Part shown: piece by piece, positions 14,746 to 64,000 of the stretch
Layout of the letters: every line of letters begins with the position of its first letter
How positions within the stretch are numbered: the stretch's first letter is position 1
From: Nitrospirota bacterium
GTDB taxonomy: Bacteria > Nitrospirota > UBA9217
NCBI GenBank assembly: GCA_963737155.1
Contig: CAVTRN010000002.1
Coordinates: forward strand, 168,287-232,286
Length of the DNA stretch: 64,000 bases
Reading direction: 5' to 3'
The notes under the pieces: model-generated
Seen by the model: only the letters and a program-made list of their open reading frames with translations
The model's database searches: none
What the model was told of the DNA's origin: nothing
Translations under genes and position numbers: made by a program

Positions 14746-15000
14746 ACCGTTCCTAAAAACATAGTATTTTATTTCTCATAACTATGACGGCAGCCGAACA
14801 GTGCTGCTGCCGGTTAACGTCAGGGATTCCCGCCCTGATTCGCCCAAGTCCCGTTGTTTGCTGATCGGGATTGCTTCCGGTGCCTTTTCAGTAAGACTGC
14901 TACTGGCAGGTGGCCCGGAGAATTGCGCTGTCGACGGGATGATGGCTTCTTCTGCAATTCAGCGCAGCCTGGGGAGTCCTGTAAGGACCGTCGTTGATAG
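14746..15000 (-). ncRNA. candidate TnpB guide-RNA (omega/reRNA) scaffold at the element right end
   Basis: It overlaps the 3' tail of the tnpB-like ORF and both strands are ORF-open. Hairpin CAGTA(14889-14893)/TACTG(14901-14905) becomes CAGCA/TGCTG in copy 2, a compensatory pair. Confidence 0.35.
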
Positions 15001-16191
15001 AGACTGTGATGATTGCCACAACCTCCCCGAGTCTTCATCTTGCTCCAAAACTTCCAGACGTGCTCCTCTCGATTCCTTGCAGGTAGAGGGGAGGCGGTTC
15101 TGCTTGGTATGGGAGACTCGGAATATCCTTGAACTCTTCTCGCGATCGCAAGCGCCGCTGCTTCATGCGGCGAGATGCCATGAAAAGACATATAATTGTT
15201 TCTGCCGATAGCGGATGTGTAAGCAGGATTCACGGAGAGCACACCGACGCCTGCCTTATATGCTCTGCGGTCAAGCATGTTTAAAAAGGTGGAATAGGCG
15301 AACCCGGATAGCATCCGCGCATACGTTACTCCCTGTTCTTTAAGAGATGCTTTCTTCTTTTCGAAGTCAAGAGTTTCATGAGCGACGGGTTTCCCTGTTT
15401 TAATTGACCGGTCGATAATGCCGACGCAGATATCACCGTAAGTTGCCTCGGTCTGTTCCGTGGTTCTGTCTTTTATACATGCAGCATACGTTGTGTGCCA
15501 GACAAAATTGCCGAACCGGTCAGTACGATCCCAGACAAAACGATGAAGAGCTTCGGGCAGCCTTCCAGGCAGACAGCCAGTTATTGTGGGATTTATAACC
15601 GTTTTCAGAAAGGCTAAACTGCTTGTAGAAAAGTTTTTTCGTCCCAAAGCAAATCCTGATTCGGCCTTTGTCCAAATCGTATTTCAGTTTTTCGAGTTTT
15701 TGCTCCGATGAATGGAGCTTCCGTTTTTTGTTATGGACCGCAAACCGGAGAGACTTCACCCTGGGCGTTTTCTCATGTCCGGACAATTTTTCGTCTTTGC
15801 GTATGTCAATGACATTGTTCTCTTTGGTTCTAATCCATTTTCGCACAGATTTTATTTTTTGTTCGAGCTTTCCAACCCGCAGTTTCAATATCTCAACCGC
15901 GGAACTGATATTGCCGTCAAGATCGTAGCGGATAGCGTTAAACTGCCGGGCGGTAATACCATACTTAACAAGATACTCATTTTTGAATGAAATGGGTTTG
16001 TTGCCGGAACGAACGCTGTCTTTAAAGAGAGAGCGTTTGATGTGCCCGTATGAGTCGCCGATATCGTCAAGAACATGATAAAGAGACTTCTTTGTGTCCA
16101 GGTAAGACATGTCAATCAGCAAAGTTTGAGCGGTAAAAGAAAGTGTTTCACTTTTGCCGCTCTTGCCCATTTTATCCTTATTACTTGCCAT
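14820..16191 (-). pseudogene. tnpB: TnpB-like gene with internal deletion/frameshift (track ORFs 15520..16191 and 14820..15647)
   Basis: The N-terminal ORF ends ...WLSAWKAARSSSSFCLGSY*. The C-terminal ORF resumes at ...RFGNFVWHTTYAAC. Copy 2 shows that the segment carrying the RuvC-I motif (YIGVDANEKEIAVSE) is missing here. Breakpoint is at 15524/15525. Confidence 0.75.
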
Positions 16192-16747
16192 TTTCCATGG
16201 CCTCCAGAGCTTTTTTTGCTTTATTGGCCGCTGACCGGCGTCCGTAGAGCCTTGCGCAAAACGATGTCAATACTTCAATCATGTCCTGCACCAGATCGTC
16301 CTTTAGCTCGGTCTGGTCTACAATAATAAGTTGACGACCTTGAGCTCGAAGTGCCGATTCTACATACTCAGACCCAAACCGCATAAGCCGGTCACGATGC
16401 AAGGCGACAATAATACTGACGTTGGAGTCGGCAAGCAGCTTCATGAGTTTTGGCCTGTGCCCATTAAGACCAGATCCAACCTCAGACACCGCTTTTGAAA
16501 CTGACAACCCTTTGGAAGCGGCATATACGGAAAGCCGCCCGAGCTGCCCGTCCAGGTCTTTCTTTTGGTCATGACTGGATACCCGGGCATAAATAGCAAC
16601 AGAACCTTGGGCAGTTTTCTGCTCTTTTATAATGATGGTTCCGGTAGGCATCTGCTCAGCCTCAACCGGCAGCTTGCCAGCCTTCCACCATTTCCATGCC
16701 GCTTGATAGGTTATACCTTGTTGCTTTGCCCATACGCTTAGCTTCAT
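16181..16747 (-). CDS. tnpA: IS607 family serine recombinase/transposase
   Basis: 188 aa. It has an N-terminal MerR-like HTH (LSVWAKQQGITYQAAWKWWKAGKLP) and then the resolvase catalytic core VAIYARVSSHDQKKDLDGQ. Confidence 0.9.
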   Translation of the reverse strand: MKLSVWAKQQGITYQAAWKWWKAGKLPVEAEQMPTGTIIIKEQKTAQGSVAIYARVSSHDQKKDLDGQLGRLSVYAASKGLSVSKAVSEVGSGLNGHRPKLMKLLADSNVSIIVALHRDRLMRFGSEYVESALRAQGRQLIIVDQTELKDDLVQDMIEVLTSFCARLYGRRSAANKAKKALEAMENGK

Positions 16748-16753
16748 AAATAC

Positions 16754-16762
16754 ATTATATCA
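16754..16762 (-). promoter_or_regulatory. extended -10 (TGATATAAT) ending 6 nt before the tnpA ATG; possible leaderless mRNA
   Basis: The minus strand reads TATGATATAATGTATTTATG. No Shine-Dalgarno is present. Confidence 0.4.
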
Positions 16763-16771
16763 TATAAAATT

Positions 16772-16905
16772 ATATTATACAATATAAATATTAACAGTAT
16801 TCCACCCTCTTTTCGACCAGCAACTCTTGCACCATGGATCATCGGGCGTAACGCCAAAAATTATTTGTCAGGTATGCTCTCGCCGATTATGATATTGTAT
16901 AATAT
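16772..16905. repeat. 14-bp inverted repeat ATATTATACAATAT (16772-16785) / ATATTGTATAATAT (16892-16905) upstream of tnpA
   Basis: Exact reverse complements about 106 bp apart in AT-rich DNA. Each is followed by an ATATTAACA-like motif. These are candidate recombinase-binding or left-end sequences. Confidence 0.4.
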
Positions 16906-17750: not shown

Positions 17751-17956
17751 GCAAGACTGCAAGCCGGGCTGAAGGAGGATAAGCCTCGGATTTGTTCCTC
17801 GCTCTGTCTGCGGCATGCTTCTCATCTCTCCGAGTGCTCAATCCTTTTATCAATCCTTGGCGCCAACCTCCCTAACCCGGACAAGCCGGAACCAAGAGGT
17901 TTTATAAAAACCATGATACAATGAAGGCTCTACTCATTGTAGTCATGGAGGTTGCT

Positions 17957-19465
17957 ATGATGATTCCTGAACGCTACCAAGATAAAATAGCCGGTTCACT
18001 ATCCTGCTATGACCGCATGATCATGCAGGGCACGCTGCCCGGCTGGTGCTTCGATAAGGGGATGACGGCATTCCTCTATGCCCGACAGATCAAGATTTTC
18101 GATTATGCCCAGTTCGCCAAAGCGCTTCAGGAAAAAGTCCGGGAGAACGCTGAGGGCCTCGCGAATGAGAACAGCATTGAGATCGAGTTCATCCGCAAGC
18201 TGGGTGCGTTCCGTAAAGAGGCTCGGATCAAAGAAATCATCAAAGCGCGTGGCGAGCAACCCGGCCTTGTTCATATCTTCTCGGCCATGGAAGCCTGCAC
18301 CAGCTACAAACCCTGGCACGACAAAAACACCGGCAAGACCTTTCTCAAGTATGATTCCGGAAAGTGTCTCCACTATTACTTCTACTTCATCGACAAGACG
18401 TTCGGCCTGTGCTACCTCCGCGTTCCCACCTGGGCACCGTTCCGGCTCCAGTTCTATATGAACGGCCACAACTGGCTGGCGGCGAAATTGGCAAAAAAGA
18501 AAATCCCCTATGTTCTTCGGGAGAACGCGTTTCTCTCTATCGATAATTTTCCCAAAGCCCAGGAGCTTTCTGACAGCATCAAGGTGTCGGACTTACACCA
18601 TGCACTGGACAGATTCGCTAAACAATACTGCCCGGTCGGTAACGGGTACGGACTTACCTACCACTGGAGCACTATGCAGGTGGAATATGCCACCGACATC
18701 GTTTTCAAGAAGCAATCGGACCTGCACACGTTGTATGAGCAAATCGTTCGAACCGCCATTCACTCCGTGAAACCGGAGAATATCGCGACCTTTCTGGGTC
18801 GGAAGCTCCACGGCAATTATCAAGGCGAAATGGGCAACAACTTCAACACCCGAATTCAGGGAACACGGATCAAGCACCATATGGGCGCTTCATCCATCAA
18901 GATGTACGACAAGTTCGGCAGCATCCTCCGGATTGAGACCACGACCAACGACGTCTCGGAGTTCAAGCACTATCGGGAAGTCCAGTCGCGGATCGGAGAT
19001 CCTGTCCACAAGAACGCACCCATGAAGAAGAACATCTACAGCCTGTTTGACCTTACGGCGATCTTCAAGGCCTCGAACCGCCGTTATCTTGAGTTCATCT
19101 CCACGTTCGACGACCAAAGCGCGGGAATCAATAACCTTGATAAAATTTCAAAGACCGTGGAAACAGGCGACCGTTCCTACAAGGGCTTCAATCTCTTCAG
19201 CGACGATGATCTCAAACTGTTCGAGGTTCTCGCCCGCGGCGAGTTCAACATCAACGGACTTCAGAATAAATCTCTACGAAAACAGCTGCCATCCGTGACG
19301 AGCAGTACCATGACGAGAATTCTGAAACGGCTTCACGTCCACGGCATTATTCGGAAAGTCGGAAAAACATACAAGTACTACGTTTCAAAACTCGGTAAGG
19401 CTGTTATCGCTGCGGGATTGACCATCCGAAATATGTCTGTAATCCCGCAACTGGCGCATGTTTAA
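17957..19465 (+). CDS. conserved ~500-aa protein of unknown function with C-terminal winged-helix (MarR-like)
   Basis: Track ORF 17921..19465, started here at ATG 17957 (GGAGG upstream). The distinctive core is CLHYYFYFIDKTFGLCYLRVPTWAPFRLQFYMNGHNWLAAKL. The C-terminus MTRILKRLHVHGIIRKVGKTYKYYVSKLGK looks wHTH. Confidence 0.6.
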   Translation: MMIPERYQDKIAGSLSCYDRMIMQGTLPGWCFDKGMTAFLYARQIKIFDYAQFAKALQEKVRENAEGLANENSIEIEFIRKLGAFRKEARIKEIIKARGEQPGLVHIFSAMEACTSYKPWHDKNTGKTFLKYDSGKCLHYYFYFIDKTFGLCYLRVPTWAPFRLQFYMNGHNWLAAKLAKKKIPYVLRENAFLSIDNFPKAQELSDSIKVSDLHHALDRFAKQYCPVGNGYGLTYHWSTMQVEYATDIVFKKQSDLHTLYEQIVRTAIHSVKPENIATFLGRKLHGNYQGEMGNNFNTRIQGTRIKHHMGASSIKMYDKFGSILRIETTTNDVSEFKHYREVQSRIGDPVHKNAPMKKNIYSLFDLTAIFKASNRRYLEFISTFDDQSAGINNLDKISKTVETGDRSYKGFNLFSDDDLKLFEVLARGEFNINGLQNKSLRKQLPSVTSSTMTRILKRLHVHGIIRKVGKTYKYYVSKLGKAVIAAGLTIRNMSVIPQLAHV

Positions 19466-57950: not shown

Positions 57951-59578
57951 TAGAGTCTGTATTTTAATGCAAAAAACGCATTGCGCGAGTGCGACCGAGG
58001 ACGCCGTAAGATGTGGTAATTCCCCCGCATTCGCGTTTATAGCCTCGCCGTTTGAGGTAGTTTCGTAATAACATAGCCATAATGCTAATTTTGAACGCAC
58101 TGGTGCTATAAGGGTTGATTGATGATTGAGTTTTCGTTACTGTCGGGCCGTTTGAATCTTGGTGATCAGCAGTCCAGTCATAACCCGAATATTATACGCA
58201 ATTGCACTCCAGTAAATTTTCGCGTTGAAGTGTGGTCGTGTCTTCCATTCGCAGCGAAACATATCGAACCCTCTTTTGAAATTCGATATGACAGCCTCGA
58301 TGCCGCTCCGCCACTTCTTAAGACGCGTTTCCAGGTTCAGGCTGCTCGTCAAATTCTTGAGCGATCCAACGATCTTGTTGAATACGATATTGACGACCCC
58401 TTTATTTTTCGCCAGTTGCTGGTTCAAGAGAGACGCATAGCCGCCGTCCGTCGTCATATCGCGCGGCACGATGCCATAGTTTTCCTTGATTCGATCAATC
58501 ACGCTGCCGTATTCCTGAGTGTCGCTGGGGTTGCCATCAAGAATCTTGCAGTCGATAATCAGCATGCTCGCACCTGTCGCCAGATTGATCTTATGCCCGA
58601 ACGTCGCTTCACGTTTGCCTTTTACGATGATATCGGTATGATCCTCAAAGATCGAAAACAGCTTGTCCTCGTTCGGCACTTTCTCTCCCAGGATCTCGTG
58701 GCGATGCGTCATGCTGTAAACCCTCTCCGCCTTCGGGAGAAGATTCTTGATTTCAGTCGCAAGAGCCAAAGCCGCATCGTCTGCGTACCGAAGCGAAGGC
58801 AACACAACAAGCGCGGCCTCAGCCTGATTAATGCTGGTTCGAAGCAATTTCGACTGTTTTTCAAAGGTTTCTTTGCGCTTCTCGCCCGGCTTCGTGTTGT
58901 TGATCTTGCCGAAATGCTTCTTGGCCTGCTTCTTGTACCGCCGCCCCGTGATCACTCCACCGGTCTCTTCAGCGAGTTTTACGAGCAGCCGGTCAAAGGT
59001 CTTGATGCAGTCCCACATCAGCGAATTGTTCGTCGGATAATGGACGTTTGTCTCGATTGCCGTGGAATCGGTTCGCGCCTTGCTGAAATCATCAAGTCCT
59101 TCCGCTTGGGCAATCTTGTTGATTGCGATCATCACTTGCTCAAGCGTTTCCGCTTTGATCATCGAGATGTACTTCTGCCAGACCGAGAAGGATATGGGGG
59201 ACCTGCCGTTAAGTTTGAGAAACAGCACGCAGATGCGAGAATCGTGTTGGGCGTACTCCAACTCCCGATATGTCAGCGTCTTCATCTCCTTATACAACGC
59301 GCCGCGCAGAATTTGCTCGATTGTGGGGGTGTCCTTTCTGCTAAGACTTTTTCCCGTGCTGCCCTTGAAGTCCCGTTTGACAAGCTCGTAAATTTCGGGA
59401 TGCAACGACAAAATCGTGTCGATAACCGCGAATTCCGTGTTGACTGCCCAGTGCGGATTCTCAAGCGTGAGTGTCAATTCGTTCAAAAGCTTCATCGTTT
59501 CCCCCTTGCTGATTTTGTTACGCCACTATACTTTTATCGTGCAGAATCAGCAAGTTAAATGATTAAATACAGACTCTA
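57951..59578 (-). mobile_element. IS5/ISNCY-like insertion sequence
   Basis: Terminal inverted repeats TAGAGTCTGTATTTTAAT (57951-57968) and ATTAAATACAGACTCTA (59562-59578). It carries a single transposase gene. Confidence 0.7.
58137..59495 (-). CDS. DDE transposase (IS4/IS5 superfamily, ISNCY-like)
   Basis: 452 aa; ...ARTDSTAIETNVHYPTNNSLMWDC..., ...DMTTDGGYAS..., ...IEAVISNFKRGFDMFRCEWK...YWSAIAYNI; AAGGGGGA SD. Confidence 0.85.
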   Translation of the reverse strand: MKLLNELTLTLENPHWAVNTEFAVIDTILSLHPEIYELVKRDFKGSTGKSLSRKDTPTIEQILRGALYKEMKTLTYRELEYAQHDSRICVLFLKLNGRSPISFSVWQKYISMIKAETLEQVMIAINKIAQAEGLDDFSKARTDSTAIETNVHYPTNNSLMWDCIKTFDRLLVKLAEETGGVITGRRYKKQAKKHFGKINNTKPGEKRKETFEKQSKLLRTSINQAEAALVVLPSLRYADDAALALATEIKNLLPKAERVYSMTHRHEILGEKVPNEDKLFSIFEDHTDIIVKGKREATFGHKINLATGASMLIIDCKILDGNPSDTQEYGSVIDRIKENYGIVPRDMTTDGGYASLLNQQLAKNKGVVNIVFNKIVGSLKNLTSSLNLETRLKKWRSGIEAVISNFKRGFDMFRCEWKTRPHFNAKIYWSAIAYNIRVMTGLLITKIQTARQ

Positions 59579-60421: not shown

Positions 60422-61043
60422 TTTTCTGTCCTTTCTTTGTGTTGTTTTTAGCTACTCGTTTCGGTTTTTCAGTAAATCTCTCGAAGGCATCCTTCTTACT
60501 GGCCAACAAGAGATTGAGCCATTCTCCTCAATTGTTAAACTCAGATTTTGATTGGCAGCATAAATTATGGAAGCTGTGAGCAGAAGTGAAACTTATCAAG
60601 AAGTTAAATTTCGCTCAACATGTAAAAATTCATACTTGAGGAGTTTCGGCCAATTACGGCCAAACATGTACTTGAGAAAAGTATATAGAATTTTGTTTGA
60701 ATGATCAATAATAATCAACAGCCTGAACGAACCTGCCGCATGGGCAGATTCAAAATGGGATAGCAAATACGAAGTGAAAGATTGGATGTTGTCTAAGCAG
60801 TCTTGGGTGTGAAATACAGGAAGTACTTGTTGCCAGGAGAATCATGTCATAATATCCATGATTCAAACAGAAGATTTCACCGTCCTAATAATTCTTAACC
60901 TCCCACATCCGCCTACTGAGATAACAAATCACTCAATATCTGGTGCTATCTCAAAAGTGCTTCCCCGAAACTCTTGCTTTAGTAATGATATAATTGTGAT
61001 CGATAAGGTATTTCACCATTCTGGCACTTTTAAGGAGGGAACT

Positions 61044-61514
61044 ATGGGAGAAGTCATTCACACATCCCGCATAAGGATAGTTCGGGAAAAGGGGCCCACT
61101 CGCAAAGCTGTGATCGAGGGATTTAACGAACCAATTTATTATGGCGTGCATGGCGGAATCAAGAAATTTTACAAAGTCGAACCCGAGGAAGAGCACGCAG
61201 CCACGCTCGACCATATTGTGGCTGCAACAGCAGGCTGAATGATGGGAACACTGGCCGCGGCGCTGGCCGGAAAGAAAATACGAACGTCCGAAGAGCTTTA
61301 CTCGGCCGATGTTGAAGGAGACATTGAGAACGTAAATGGCATTCTGAAAATCACGAAGATTAGGGTAAAGTACTATCTCAAAGTACCGGCAGGGAAATCC
61401 GCTGAAGCAAGAGCGGCATTTTCCTCATACATAGTTGGATGTCCGGCGGCGCAAAGTGTCATCGGTTGTATAGATATCAGGGACGATCTTGCAATCGAAG
61501 AAATGAAAGAGTAA
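61044..61514 (+). CDS. OsmC/Ohr-family peroxiredoxin-like protein with in-frame TGA (candidate Sec) at the peroxidatic Cys position
   Basis: ATG 61044 (AAGGAGG SD). ...LDHIVAATAG-TGA(61236-61238)-MMGTLAAALAG... runs in frame into track ORF 61239..61514, which carries the second OsmC Cys (VGCPAAQSV). Hairpin CTGGCC/GGCCGG at 61251-61270. Confidence 0.65.
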
Positions 61515-62347: not shown

Positions 62348-63020
62348 TTATCCCTCCATTTGGTTTGCTGGTTTTCGCTCGCTTCATGAATCTCTTAACT
62401 AAAAATAATACCACAAACTGCATGATACAAATAGATTATGTGATCACCTGATGAGGCAGTAGTCTGTATTACATGCTTCACATGCGATTCTACACGTCTT
62501 CAAAAATTATCTTTATATCGTCACCATCTACAAGCTTGCAGAGTTGTTGACTGAAATTCAATGCACAATAACTACTTGAAAGGTATAATGTAAAGTTCTT
62601 GGCTATGTTGAGTTAGATTTGCGTTTGCCAAGCAAATATCTGTTTTCTTGTCCTATTATCCTCCTTTCATTCTGGATTACTTAACATAATAATTTCCAGT
62701 TGATCGCATTTAAATCACCGGAGGAGAGCTACGTAAGAAAAGTCATCGCCGAATAAAACTGATTCTGTGAAACGTCATGAGGAGCAAGAGAGTTCTGCAA
62801 TCATTCCCTTCGGGAATATATTAGAAAAGAGGGATACGCATCTGGTGGAATGGCAGAAAACAGCTATGCATCTGCTTCAATCAGGAGTGGATATTACCGT
62901 AATTGGAAGCGTGTGCTTCAGAAATTGTCTCTTCCGCATACCAATGCAGTCCGTTTTAAAACCGCTGACCCGCTCTTGGAGTTTCTGGAGAGTCTGTGAT
63001 TATATGTAGACTCTCTCTGA

Positions 63021-64000
63021 ACCGTTCCTAAAAACATAGTATTTTATTTCTCATAACTATGACGGCAGCCGAACAGTGCTGCTGCCGGTTAACGTCAGGG
63101 ATTCCCGCCCTGATTCGCCCAAGTCCCGTTGTTTGCTGATCGGGATTGCTTCTGGCGCCTTTTCAGCAAGACTGCTGCTGGCAGGTGGCCCGGAGAATTG
63201 CGCTGTCGACGGGATGATGGCTTCTTCTGCAATTCAGCGCAGCCTGGGGAGTCCTGTAAGGACCGTCGTTGGTAGAGACTGTGATGATTTCCACAACCTC
63301 CCCGAGTCTTCATCTTGCTCCAAAACTTCCAGATGTGCTCCTCTCGATTCCTTGCAGGTAGAGGGGAGGCGGTTCTGCTTGGTATGGGAGACTCGGAATA
63401 TCCTTGAACTCTTCTCGCGATCGCAAGCGCCGCTGCTTCATGCGGCGAGATGCCATGAAAAGACATATAATTGTTTCTGCCGATAACGGATGTGTAAGCA
63501 GGATTCACGGAGAGCACACCGGCGCCTGCCTTAAATGCTCTGCGGTCAAGCATGTTTAAAAAGGTGGAATAGGCGAACCCGGACAGCATCCGCGCATACG
63601 TTACTCCCTGTTCCTTAAGAGATGCTTTCTTCTTTTCGAAGTCAAGAGTTTCATGAGCGACGGGTTTCCCGGTTTTAATTGACCGGTCGATAATGCCGAC
63701 GCAGATATCACCGTAAGTTGCCTCGGTCTGTTCCGTGGTTCTGTCTTTTATACATGCAGCATACGTTGTGTGCCAGACAAGATTGACGAACCGGTCAGTC
63801 TCGGAAACAGCAATCTCTTTTTCGTTTGCATCTACGCCAATATATCCGATTTCTTGCGGTTTCCCGGTAATTGTTTCTCTTGGGGGGATATCAACCGATG
63901 AATACAGATACCAACCCTTCTCGCCACGGACAAACCGGTGGGTGATTGCCTGGCTGCGCAGGAGTGCCTGCTCAATATATTCCTGCCCGTAAGGATATGT
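63021..64000 (-). mobile_element. IS607-family element, copy 2 (right end plus tnpB-like 3' two-thirds; runs off the window)
   Basis: About 98% identical to 14746-15524 (about 15 substitutions). It then continues with sequence absent from copy 1. Confidence 0.8.
63095..64000 (-). CDS. tnpB: TnpB-like protein, atypical (partial; N-terminus beyond window)
   Basis: The frame is open from the window edge: ...GWYLYSSVDIPPRETITGKPQEIGYIGVDANEKEIAVSETDRFVNLVWHTTYAAC...VAHETLDF...LSVNPAYTSVIGRNNYMSFHGISPHEAAALAIARRVQGY... The track lists only 63095..63589 because no start codon lies inside the window. Confidence 0.75.
   Translation of the reverse strand, partial: TYPYGQEYIEQALLRSQAITHRFVRGEKGWYLYSSVDIPPRETITGKPQEIGYIGVDANEKEIAVSETDRFVNLVWHTTYAACIKDRTTEQTEATYGDICVGIIDRSIKTGKPVAHETLDFEKKKASLKEQGVTYARMLSGFAYSTFLNMLDRRAFKAGAGVLSVNPAYTSVIGRNNYMSFHGISPHEAAALAIARRVQGYSESPIPSRTASPLPARNREEHIWKFWSKMKTRGGCGNHHSLYQRRSLQDSPGCAELQKKPSSRRQRNSPGHLPAAVLLKRRQKQSRSANNGTWANQGGNP

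Follow-up and report, generated by a model that had tools for sequence, protein, structure and literature searches.

The window analysed here is a stretch of 64,000 nucleotides (nt) of contig CAVTRN010000002.1 from a Nitrospirota bacterium, and it holds two copies of an IS607-type transposable element, both on the minus strand. Copy 1 spans 14746..16807, and copy 2 extends from its right end at 63021 across the far edge of the window. Each carries an accessory gene related to tnpB. The gene of copy 2 is the main subject of this report: we read it as probably the 3′ part of a TnpB gene of the published clade RIIIr-4, with a His as third catalytic residue and a short helix where canonical TnpB carries a zinc ribbon.

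The copy 2 gene and its predicted catalytic residues

In copy 2, an open frame of 301 codons runs along the minus strand from position 64000 to a TGA stop at 63095–63097, its 5′ end cut by the window edge; the other two minus-strand frames over 63095–64000 contain many stops. The frame is colinear with P0002, a database protein 94% identical to it, from residue 262 of that protein onwards, and the alignment places its beginning at about residue 262 of a predicted protein of about 560 amino acids (aa) whose N-terminus lies outside the window. The three motifs that a sequence-only reading of this DNA had reported are all present in the translation, namely, RuvC-I (YIGVDANEKEIAV, containing GVDAN), RuvC-II (VAHETLDF), and the block LSVNPAYTS (63488–63505, minus strand). 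The His-containing sequence given in that reading, IGRNNYMSFHGISPHEAAALAIARRVQGY, was likewise found, and its His187 occupies 63440–63442. Not a single Cys separates YTS from His187. The features of the gene fragment are as follows.

63095..64000, minus strand: 3′ part of the copy 2 tnpB-like gene (translation; 94% identical to P0002 residues 262–487)
63830..63832, minus strand: RuvC-I Asp57 in motif GVDAN (homologue counts; hhalign alignment to AmaTnpB; within strand 54–58 of the model)
63650..63652, minus strand: RuvC-II Glu117 in motif KPVAHETLDF (homologue counts; aligned by hhalign with the Glu of ALEDL in AmaTnpB; end of strand 114–117)
63440..63442, minus strand: His187 at the RuvC-III position, motif SPHEAAALAIARR (homologue counts; starts helix 186–198, after strand 162–165)
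63443..63487, minus strand: short Cys-free linker, a predicted helix, in place of the C4 zinc ribbon or target-nucleic-acid-binding (TNB) domain (fixed length; modelled helix 170–182)

The family to which this gene belongs is large and widely distributed. A protein search returned at least 325 close homologues, mostly of 490–525 aa and without a precomputed Pfam domain. Among 1.84 billion representatives of clusters formed at 50% identity, a profile search matched at least 1,651 at E ≤ 1e-30. When one genome of each species was scanned, at least 533 genomic loci emerged, hosted by Nitrospirota, Chlamydiota, Verrucomicrobiota, Bacillota, Proteobacteria, and Dehalococcoidia. For residue counts, 265 homologues were aligned to a hidden Markov model of the family. 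The RuvC-I position is Asp in 255 of 257 homologues and the RuvC-II position Glu in 260 of 261, whereas the RuvC-III position is His in 244 of 260 (94%), Asp in 14 (5%), and another residue in two; both sequences with neither His nor Asp at this third position also lack the RuvC-I Asp. YTS and the His are separated by one constant distance in 254 of the 265, and no member of a set of 260 contains more than one Cys between the two. From YTS to a downstream HIW motif, the copy 2 translation is colinear with hundreds of homologues at 37–94% identity and shares their conserved residues.

The interchange of His and Asp at a single column speaks for a working site, as does the fact that the two degenerate sequences have lost their residues together, and the Asp, Glu, and His/Asp positions are under strong purifying selection. 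The 14 homologues with Asp in place of His (P0027, P0035, P0040, P0042, P0043, P0073, P0080, P0087, P0097, P0208, P0225, P0229, P0239, and P0257) all lack the zinc ribbon as well; ribbon loss and the change from Asp to His are thus separable. Two further positions near the His are nearly invariant. Glu203 (63392–63394; Glu440 in the numbering of P0006), which lies 16 residues past the His in the motif G-x-S-E-x-P, is present in 252 of 257 homologues, and Arg196 (63413–63415; Arg433 in P0006), the Arg of I-A-R-R, in 257 of 258.

These counts bear on what had been proposed from the letters of the window. The absence of both the zinc ribbon and the RuvC-III Asp holds for the family as a whole. 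A pair His-Glu, suggested as the replacement for the Asp, survives only in its first member: the His is conserved, but the residue that follows it is variable (Gln in 89, Glu in 46, and His in 35 of 260), and there is no His-Glu dyad. An ordinary RuvC-III Asp overlooked through misalignment is ruled out by the His found at that position in 244 of 260, and a frameshift downstream of YTS is absent as far as the HIW motif, the stretch being colinear with homologues. Of the three readings first entertained, a divergent clade whose third catalytic residue has been re-wired, a nuclease-dead derivative, and an unrecognised family, the first fits best with this pattern of near-invariant Asp and Glu beside a His/Asp third position.

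The relationship to TnpB, also proposed from the sequence, is recovered by profile-profile comparison and by predicted structure. Curated models of TnpB match the fragment and six full-length relatives only below threshold, the Pfam and NCBIfam matches covering no more than RuvC-II to YTS (TIGR01766, 24.9 bits against a cut-off of 32). The family profile aligned by hhalign to the validated AmaTnpB with a probability of 93.4% (E 2.4e-7), pairing the RuvC-I Asp, the RuvC-II Glu, and YTS, and the alignment ends where the AmaTnpB zinc finger starts. When that zinc finger was deleted in silico, a test that is contrived yet informative, the family His fell on the Asp of PADTIAAVNI (probability 80%, E 1.3e-5). 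The 'Typical' TnpB ortholog 45 gave no hhalign match to the family.

AlphaFold2 modelled a full-length relative with a mean predicted local distance difference test score (pLDDT) of 86.6 and a predicted template modelling score (pTM) of 0.78, and the window fragment with a pLDDT of 80.1; both models have the RNase-H order of strands and helices. In the modelled fragment, strand 1 contains Asp57 and strand 4 ends with Glu117; the place of the zinc ribbon is taken by a short helix, and His187 opens the next helix, the one which bears the RuvC-III Asp in canonical TnpB. The best Foldseek matches are RuvC resolvases, with template modelling (TM) scores of 0.62–0.70 normalised to the resolvase, followed by Cas12f, ISDra2 TnpB, Fanzor2, Cas12m, and IscB.

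Canonical TnpB, as represented by ISDra2 TnpB (PDB 8EXA), AmaTnpB, and NF040570, thus resembles the family in domain order and RuvC fold, in an alignable RuvC-I Asp and RuvC-II Glu, and in riding IS605 or IS607 elements with an omega-RNA encoded at the 3′ or right end. It differs in that the family lacks the zinc ribbon or TNB domain, has His for the RuvC-III Asp, is about 100 aa longer in its N-terminal half, and falls far under the curated cut-offs, with a Foldseek match at E of about 1e-3. The RuvC Holliday-junction resolvases (PDB 7W8D, 4LD0, and 1HJR) are the closest structural match to the nuclease core and share its uninterrupted RNase-H fold without a zinc-ribbon insertion; unlike the family, they form stand-alone dimers, carry a DEDD site, and lack an RNA guide, and sequence similarity to them is undetectable. 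Nuclease-dead TnpB derivatives (TldR and the Ri-type branches) and Cas12k and Cas12m also deviate from the canonical RuvC triad. However, catalytic residues are gone from those proteins, whose genes are immobile or exapted beside host genes, whereas the family of the window keeps its Asp and Glu and resides in a mobile, multi-copy transposon. An association with CRISPR, as expected of Cas12, the type V effector, was rejected, as there is no CRISPR array near either copy.

The element, its copies, and its right-end RNA module

The organisation of the element is best seen in copy 1, whose features are listed here.

14746..16807, minus strand: copy 1, IS607-type element of 2,062 bp with about 315 nt deleted in tnpB (copy comparison; lengths of relatives)
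16181..16747, minus strand: copy 1 tnpA, IS607-family serine recombinase of 188 aa (NF033518, 197.8 bits; PF00239, 66.5 bits)
15520..16191, minus strand: N-terminal fragment of copy 1 tnpB, residues 1–222 (92% identical to P0002 residues 1–222)
14820..15524, minus strand: C-terminal fragment of copy 1 tnpB, in a frame other than that of the N-terminal fragment, RuvC-I deleted

The IS607 organisation claimed earlier for this copy is borne out by the score of its tnpA against the IS607 transposase model NF033518, for which the cut-off is 110 bits, and by an overlap of 11 nt between the 3′ end of tnpA and the start of the tnpB-like frame; the tnpA of copy 2 lies beyond the window. Copy 1 begins with GGGTGGAATACTG at 16807 and ends with ...AGGAACGGT at 14746. 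Its segment 14746..15524 is 98% identical to 63021..63799 of copy 2, and the homology between the two copies ceases at 63021, the right end of copy 2. That copy 2 is the better preserved was also correctly read. The deletion in copy 1, at 15524/15525, removed about 105 codons (residues ~223–328, including RuvC-I) and accounts for a length of 2,062 bp in what would otherwise be an element of about 2.38 kb. Copy 1 retains tnpA, both ends, and the RNA module described below, and looks non-autonomous as to TnpB.

The relatives show the same element at work elsewhere. In 66 of 81 fetched loci, the tnpB-like gene has a tnpA homologue immediately upstream of it and on its own strand. Eight pairs of elements, each pair within one genome, share 85–99.96% identity over 2,266–2,409 bp (at least 99.3% in six of the pairs) and are flanked by unrelated sequence. 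Near-identical copies within one genome occur in several phyla, and such multi-copy elements point to recent transposition. The paired elements start at GGGTT... and end at ...AGGA(A/G)CGG(T/C), and neither inverted repeats nor a target duplication are visible at the element ends. IS607 elements are known to have termini at GG and no target duplication (PMC13565253). The elements thus share with the IS607 family (IS607, IS1535) a helix-turn-helix serine recombinase TnpA of the MerR type upstream of and overlapping tnpB, GG ends (GGGT../..ACGG) without visible repeats or duplication, and a length of ~2.3–2.4 kb, and differ in having, as tnpB partner, a gene of the His clade instead of a typical one.

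At the left end of copy 1 (16746..16807, minus strand) lies an AT-rich tandem repeat of about 20 nt (16746–16793). A subterminal left-end motif, AACTG(T/C)T, is identical to the loop of hairpin B at the right end, and its T/C position changes in step at both ends between lineages (loci L002 and L003 as against L021), which suggests a protein-binding site shared by the two ends, possibly that of TnpA.

The right end of the element carries a structured module that overlaps the gene. The features concerned are these.

63021..63117, minus strand: right-end module of copy 2, predicted 3′ end of the omega-RNA scaffold (covariance model R1, 100.1 bits, E 1e-20; covariation)
14746..14842, minus strand: right-end module of copy 1, omega-RNA 3′ module (R1, 100.1 bits)
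63118..63259, minus strand: distal tail codons, residues 248–294, probable omega-RNA scaffold (low pLDDT; frame switch; RNAalifold hairpins)
63001..63020, minus strand: flank outside the right end, predicted guide, 5′-TCAGAGAGAGTCTACATATA (from the end of copy homology)

The copy 2 module comprises, in order, hairpin A (loop GCGGGAAUC), hairpin B (loop AGCACUGUUCG), a variable hairpin C, and UUUUUAGGAACGGU, and it overlaps the last seven codons and the stop of the open reading frame (ORF). Across elements, the last ~110 nt share one architecture, with a hairpin A loop of GYGNGAWUC, a hairpin B loop of A(A/G)CACUGUUCG, the variable hairpin C, and then UUUNAGGAACGG, after which the flanks are unrelated. 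In 21 sequences, 99.3% of helix cells are paired, as opposed to 70.9% in shuffled controls and 32–47% when partners were slid, with compensatory changes in 11 of 13 pairs; over both sets the figure is 11–12 of 13. The second set, 80 distinct covariance-model matches, has 97.9% of cells paired and 244 double-sided changes. Within the module helices, G.U cells number 56 and A.C cells 10, an excess which indicates a sense-strand RNA. Hairpin C, aligned inconsistently by MAFFT, was judged by folding each sequence separately; in 96% of the 75 sequences folded, its segment did better than shuffles, with a mean z of −3.2. The covariance model, built from the 21 sequences, matches only the two element copies within the window; among related loci it finds the module in 80 of 81, and each time the module lies on the strand of the gene, at its 3′ end. 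Rfam gave no match over the whole window at gathering thresholds, nor over 62900–64000 at E ≤ 1. This covarying three-hairpin module in the last 97 nt of the element, which stops precisely at the element boundary, is new in the present analysis. Extra right-end modules lie away from the queried gene in two loci (L059, 8463..8568, minus strand; L053, 464..592, plus strand) and are probably additional or solo ends.

The module bears directly on the C-terminal tail of the protein, which had been described as an Arg/Ser/Pro-rich tail of about 100 aa running close to the element end. The description holds as to composition (12 Ser, 12 Arg, and 9 Pro in the 98 residues past Glu203) and position (the TGA stop is 74 nt from 63021), but the distal part does not behave as a protein extension. 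Residues 248–301 have pLDDT values below 50 and are modelled as disordered. Three of the five closest homologues (P0001, P0003, and P0004) change to frame −3 at about 63209 and run past the stop of the window gene to about 63060. Of 54 loci, 27 read hairpin A in frame 0, nine in frame 2, and five in frame 1, and in the other 13 the hairpin lies past the stop; the stop itself ranges from 48 nt before the module start to 89 nt inside it. RNAalifold suggests additional upstream hairpins in the Nitrospirota subgroup. A frame that is not conserved, a structure that covaries, and a low pLDDT together mark the last ~40–55 residues as translated scaffold: the distal tail is, on this comparative evidence, in all appearance part of the omega-RNA gene rather than a protein domain, and only the segment through the HIW..W motif and the helices after it behaves as protein, of the tail itself about the first third.

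The RIIIr-4 clade, the proposed mechanism, and its rivals

TnpB has been divided into five major clades. The defining traits of one of them, RIIIr-4, are a RuvC-III Asp mutated to His and a missing C4 zinc finger, and the clade has been argued to be active from its conservation (Altae-Tran et al., 2023, PNAS, PMC10691335). One member, ortholog no. 39 from Nocardiopsis dassonvillei (529 aa), has been tested; in a cell-free system it showed a clear 5′ processing site of its omega-RNA, whose scaffold is 466 nt long (Nety et al., 2023, PMC10278001). Within the body of literature searched, no later paper on RIIIr-4 was found. The family profile aligned to the partial sequence of no. 39 with an hhalign probability of 99.6% (E 9.6e-24, 329 columns). 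Its published scaffold, when translated, yields VDPAYTSRWG...SRHDAASIAVGRR, arranged as in the window protein, and its reverse transcription primer places the scaffold terminus at ...CACTGTTCAGGAACGGT, identical to the terminus of the window element.

The likeness extends to a length of about 500–530 aa, to a shared motif order (GVDxN ... ExLDF ... PAYTS, a short Cys-free linker, and S-x-H-x-AA-x-x-I-x-x-RR), to a long omega-RNA region that overlaps the ORF in its 3′ part, and to a common scaffold end, ...CACTGTTC..AGGAACGGT. There are differences, in that the window protein is only ~19% identical to no. 39 over the aligned part, its family has three hairpins between the CACUGUUC motif and the AGGAACGG terminus, and about 5% of the members found here carry Asp and not His. 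By its His, its missing zinc finger, and its homology to no. 39, the family nonetheless matches RIIIr-4 at the level of sequence. The finding is real and was read correctly in outline, but the novelty implied by an unrecognised family falls away: the clade was already published, with one of its members assayed.

According to the literature, TnpB matures its own mRNA into omega-RNA through its RuvC site and takes the flank past the right end of the element as guide, and the TnpB complex cuts the empty donor site beside a transposon-adjacent motif (TAM), whereupon repair restores the element. A requirement for the RuvC site in omega-RNA processing is documented for AmaTnpB, and the layout is a scaffold followed by a guide (PMC10278001). 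The element of the window would probably work likewise. Its tnpB transcript would be processed into a long omega-RNA with a scaffold reaching approximately from the NPAYTS codons to 63021, and the flank beyond would serve as guide, namely, TCAGAGAGAGTCTACATATA for copy 2 and ATTTCACTGGTTCAAAAAAC for copy 1. After excision by TnpA, the complex of TnpB and omega-RNA would recognise the empty donor site beside a G-rich (GG) TAM, presumably set by the IS607 target. The Asp-Glu-His RuvC centre would then cut the donor site, and homologous repair would restore the element.

Several findings weigh against so straightforward a reading. No RIIIr-4 member has been demonstrated to cut DNA, and the sole ortholog tested, no. 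39, was negative in a screen for double-stranded DNA (dsDNA) TAMs (PMC10278001). The curated models remain well below their cut-offs (NF040570, 44.9 bits against 100 for the copy 2 fragment; PF07282, 14.9 against 26.3), and the family profile met no solved structure better than E = 0.1 among PDB sequences. The assignment of His187 as RuvC-III equivalent derives from alignment and from the order of elements in the model, not from distances, and the conserved Glu203 could be an extra or alternative third active-site acid. With the N-terminal 261 residues of copy 2 beyond the window, intactness can be read for the 3′ part only. The omega-RNA of copy 2 is predicted from structure and relatives rather than from expression; single-sequence folding of the window tail is no better than that of shuffles (z = +0.74), which leaves covariation as the sole foundation of the RNA claim.

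The negative result for no. 39 lends itself to another account, in which the Asp-Glu-His centre matures omega-RNA and the cleavage of dsDNA has been lost or its substrate has moved to single-stranded DNA (ssDNA) or RNA, the protein then aiding the transposon by binding or marking a site and not by homing cleavage. We consider this unlikely, although it has real attractions: the ortholog did process its omega-RNA, its authors speculate on alternative substrates for such orthologs (PMC10278001), and the ribbon that binds target nucleic acid is missing throughout the family. Yet a single cell-free negative is weak when 32 of 59 orthologs of all clades were negative in the same study (PMC10278001), selection on Asp, Glu, and His/Asp is strong, the interchange of the last two is what a working metal site would lead one to expect, and the elements are as mobile and multi-copy as ordinary IS607 elements bearing TnpB. 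If it were true, the cargo of an actively mobile IS607 element would be an RNA-guided binder, or else a nuclease acting on ssDNA or RNA, which would support the maintenance of the element by something other than homing cleavage.

Decay offers another explanation, that of a nuclease-dead passenger or pseudogene whose odd C-terminus arose by frameshift relative to intact relatives. The internal deletion that broke copy 1, the last ~38 codons read in another frame in P0001, P0003, and P0004, and an N-terminus of copy 2 out of sight would all suit it. We judge it very improbable, since the stretch from YTS to HIW keeps its colinearity and conserved residues, the frame differences are confined to the RNA module, occur family-wide, and leave the upstream protein intact, and near-identical elements in several copies bespeak recent movement. 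Less probable still, in our view, is that the right-end hairpins serve TnpA as signals at the level of DNA, or terminate transcription, and are not part of a guide RNA. The hairpin B loop ACTGTT does recur near the left end and changes together with it between lineages, IS607 ends do carry repeat units (PMC13565253), and a U-run does follow hairpin C; but the substrate of serine recombinases is double-stranded DNA, for which no hairpins are needed, the preference for G.U over A.C speaks for the sense strand, the stems covary around fixed loops, and the only feature that TnpB omega-RNAs have in common is a 3′ hairpin near the end of the scaffold. A role as RNA and a role as DNA signal are, moreover, not mutually exclusive.

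Neighbouring genes and wider meaning

Other genes of the window lie near the two copies. An ORF of 514 aa at 17921..19465 (plus strand), which has no Pfam match, is separated by some 1.1 kb from the left end of copy 1. Near copy 2, an unrelated mobile element encodes a DDE_Tnp_1 (IS4-type) transposase of 452 aa at 58137..59495 (minus strand; PF01609, 39.3 bits), and the long ORF that mirrors it on the other strand (479 aa) is probably spurious. An OsmC-like gene at 60858..61514 (plus strand) is split by a single in-frame TGA at 61236–61238, which falls exactly at the position of the conserved catalytic Cys (..AATAG-TGA-MMGTLAAALAG..). Joined with a Cys at the stop, the two ORFs score 33.8 bits against PF02566 (cut-off 27.5); alone, the C-terminal half scores 21.6 bits and the N-terminal half has no match. 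A hairpin about 15 nt downstream of the TGA is not statistically unusual. The TGA is a candidate selenocysteine codon, or else the gene is a pseudogene.

For the family itself, the findings have practical consequences. ORF callers over-extend these genes into the gene of the guide RNA and the curated TnpB models miss the family, while for expression constructs the tail is best trimmed at about residue 247 of the fragment. The biochemistry of RIIIr-4 is nearly unexplored, comprising one ortholog positive for omega-RNA processing and negative for dsDNA cleavage, and its activity at the level of DNA is directly testable. Besides the trimming of the tail, two observations could guide such an experiment: the interchange of His and Asp at the third catalytic position within an otherwise identical architecture, and the covariance-supported 3′ omega-RNA module, whose sharp predicted boundary between scaffold and guide at ...AGGAACGG would help in its design.

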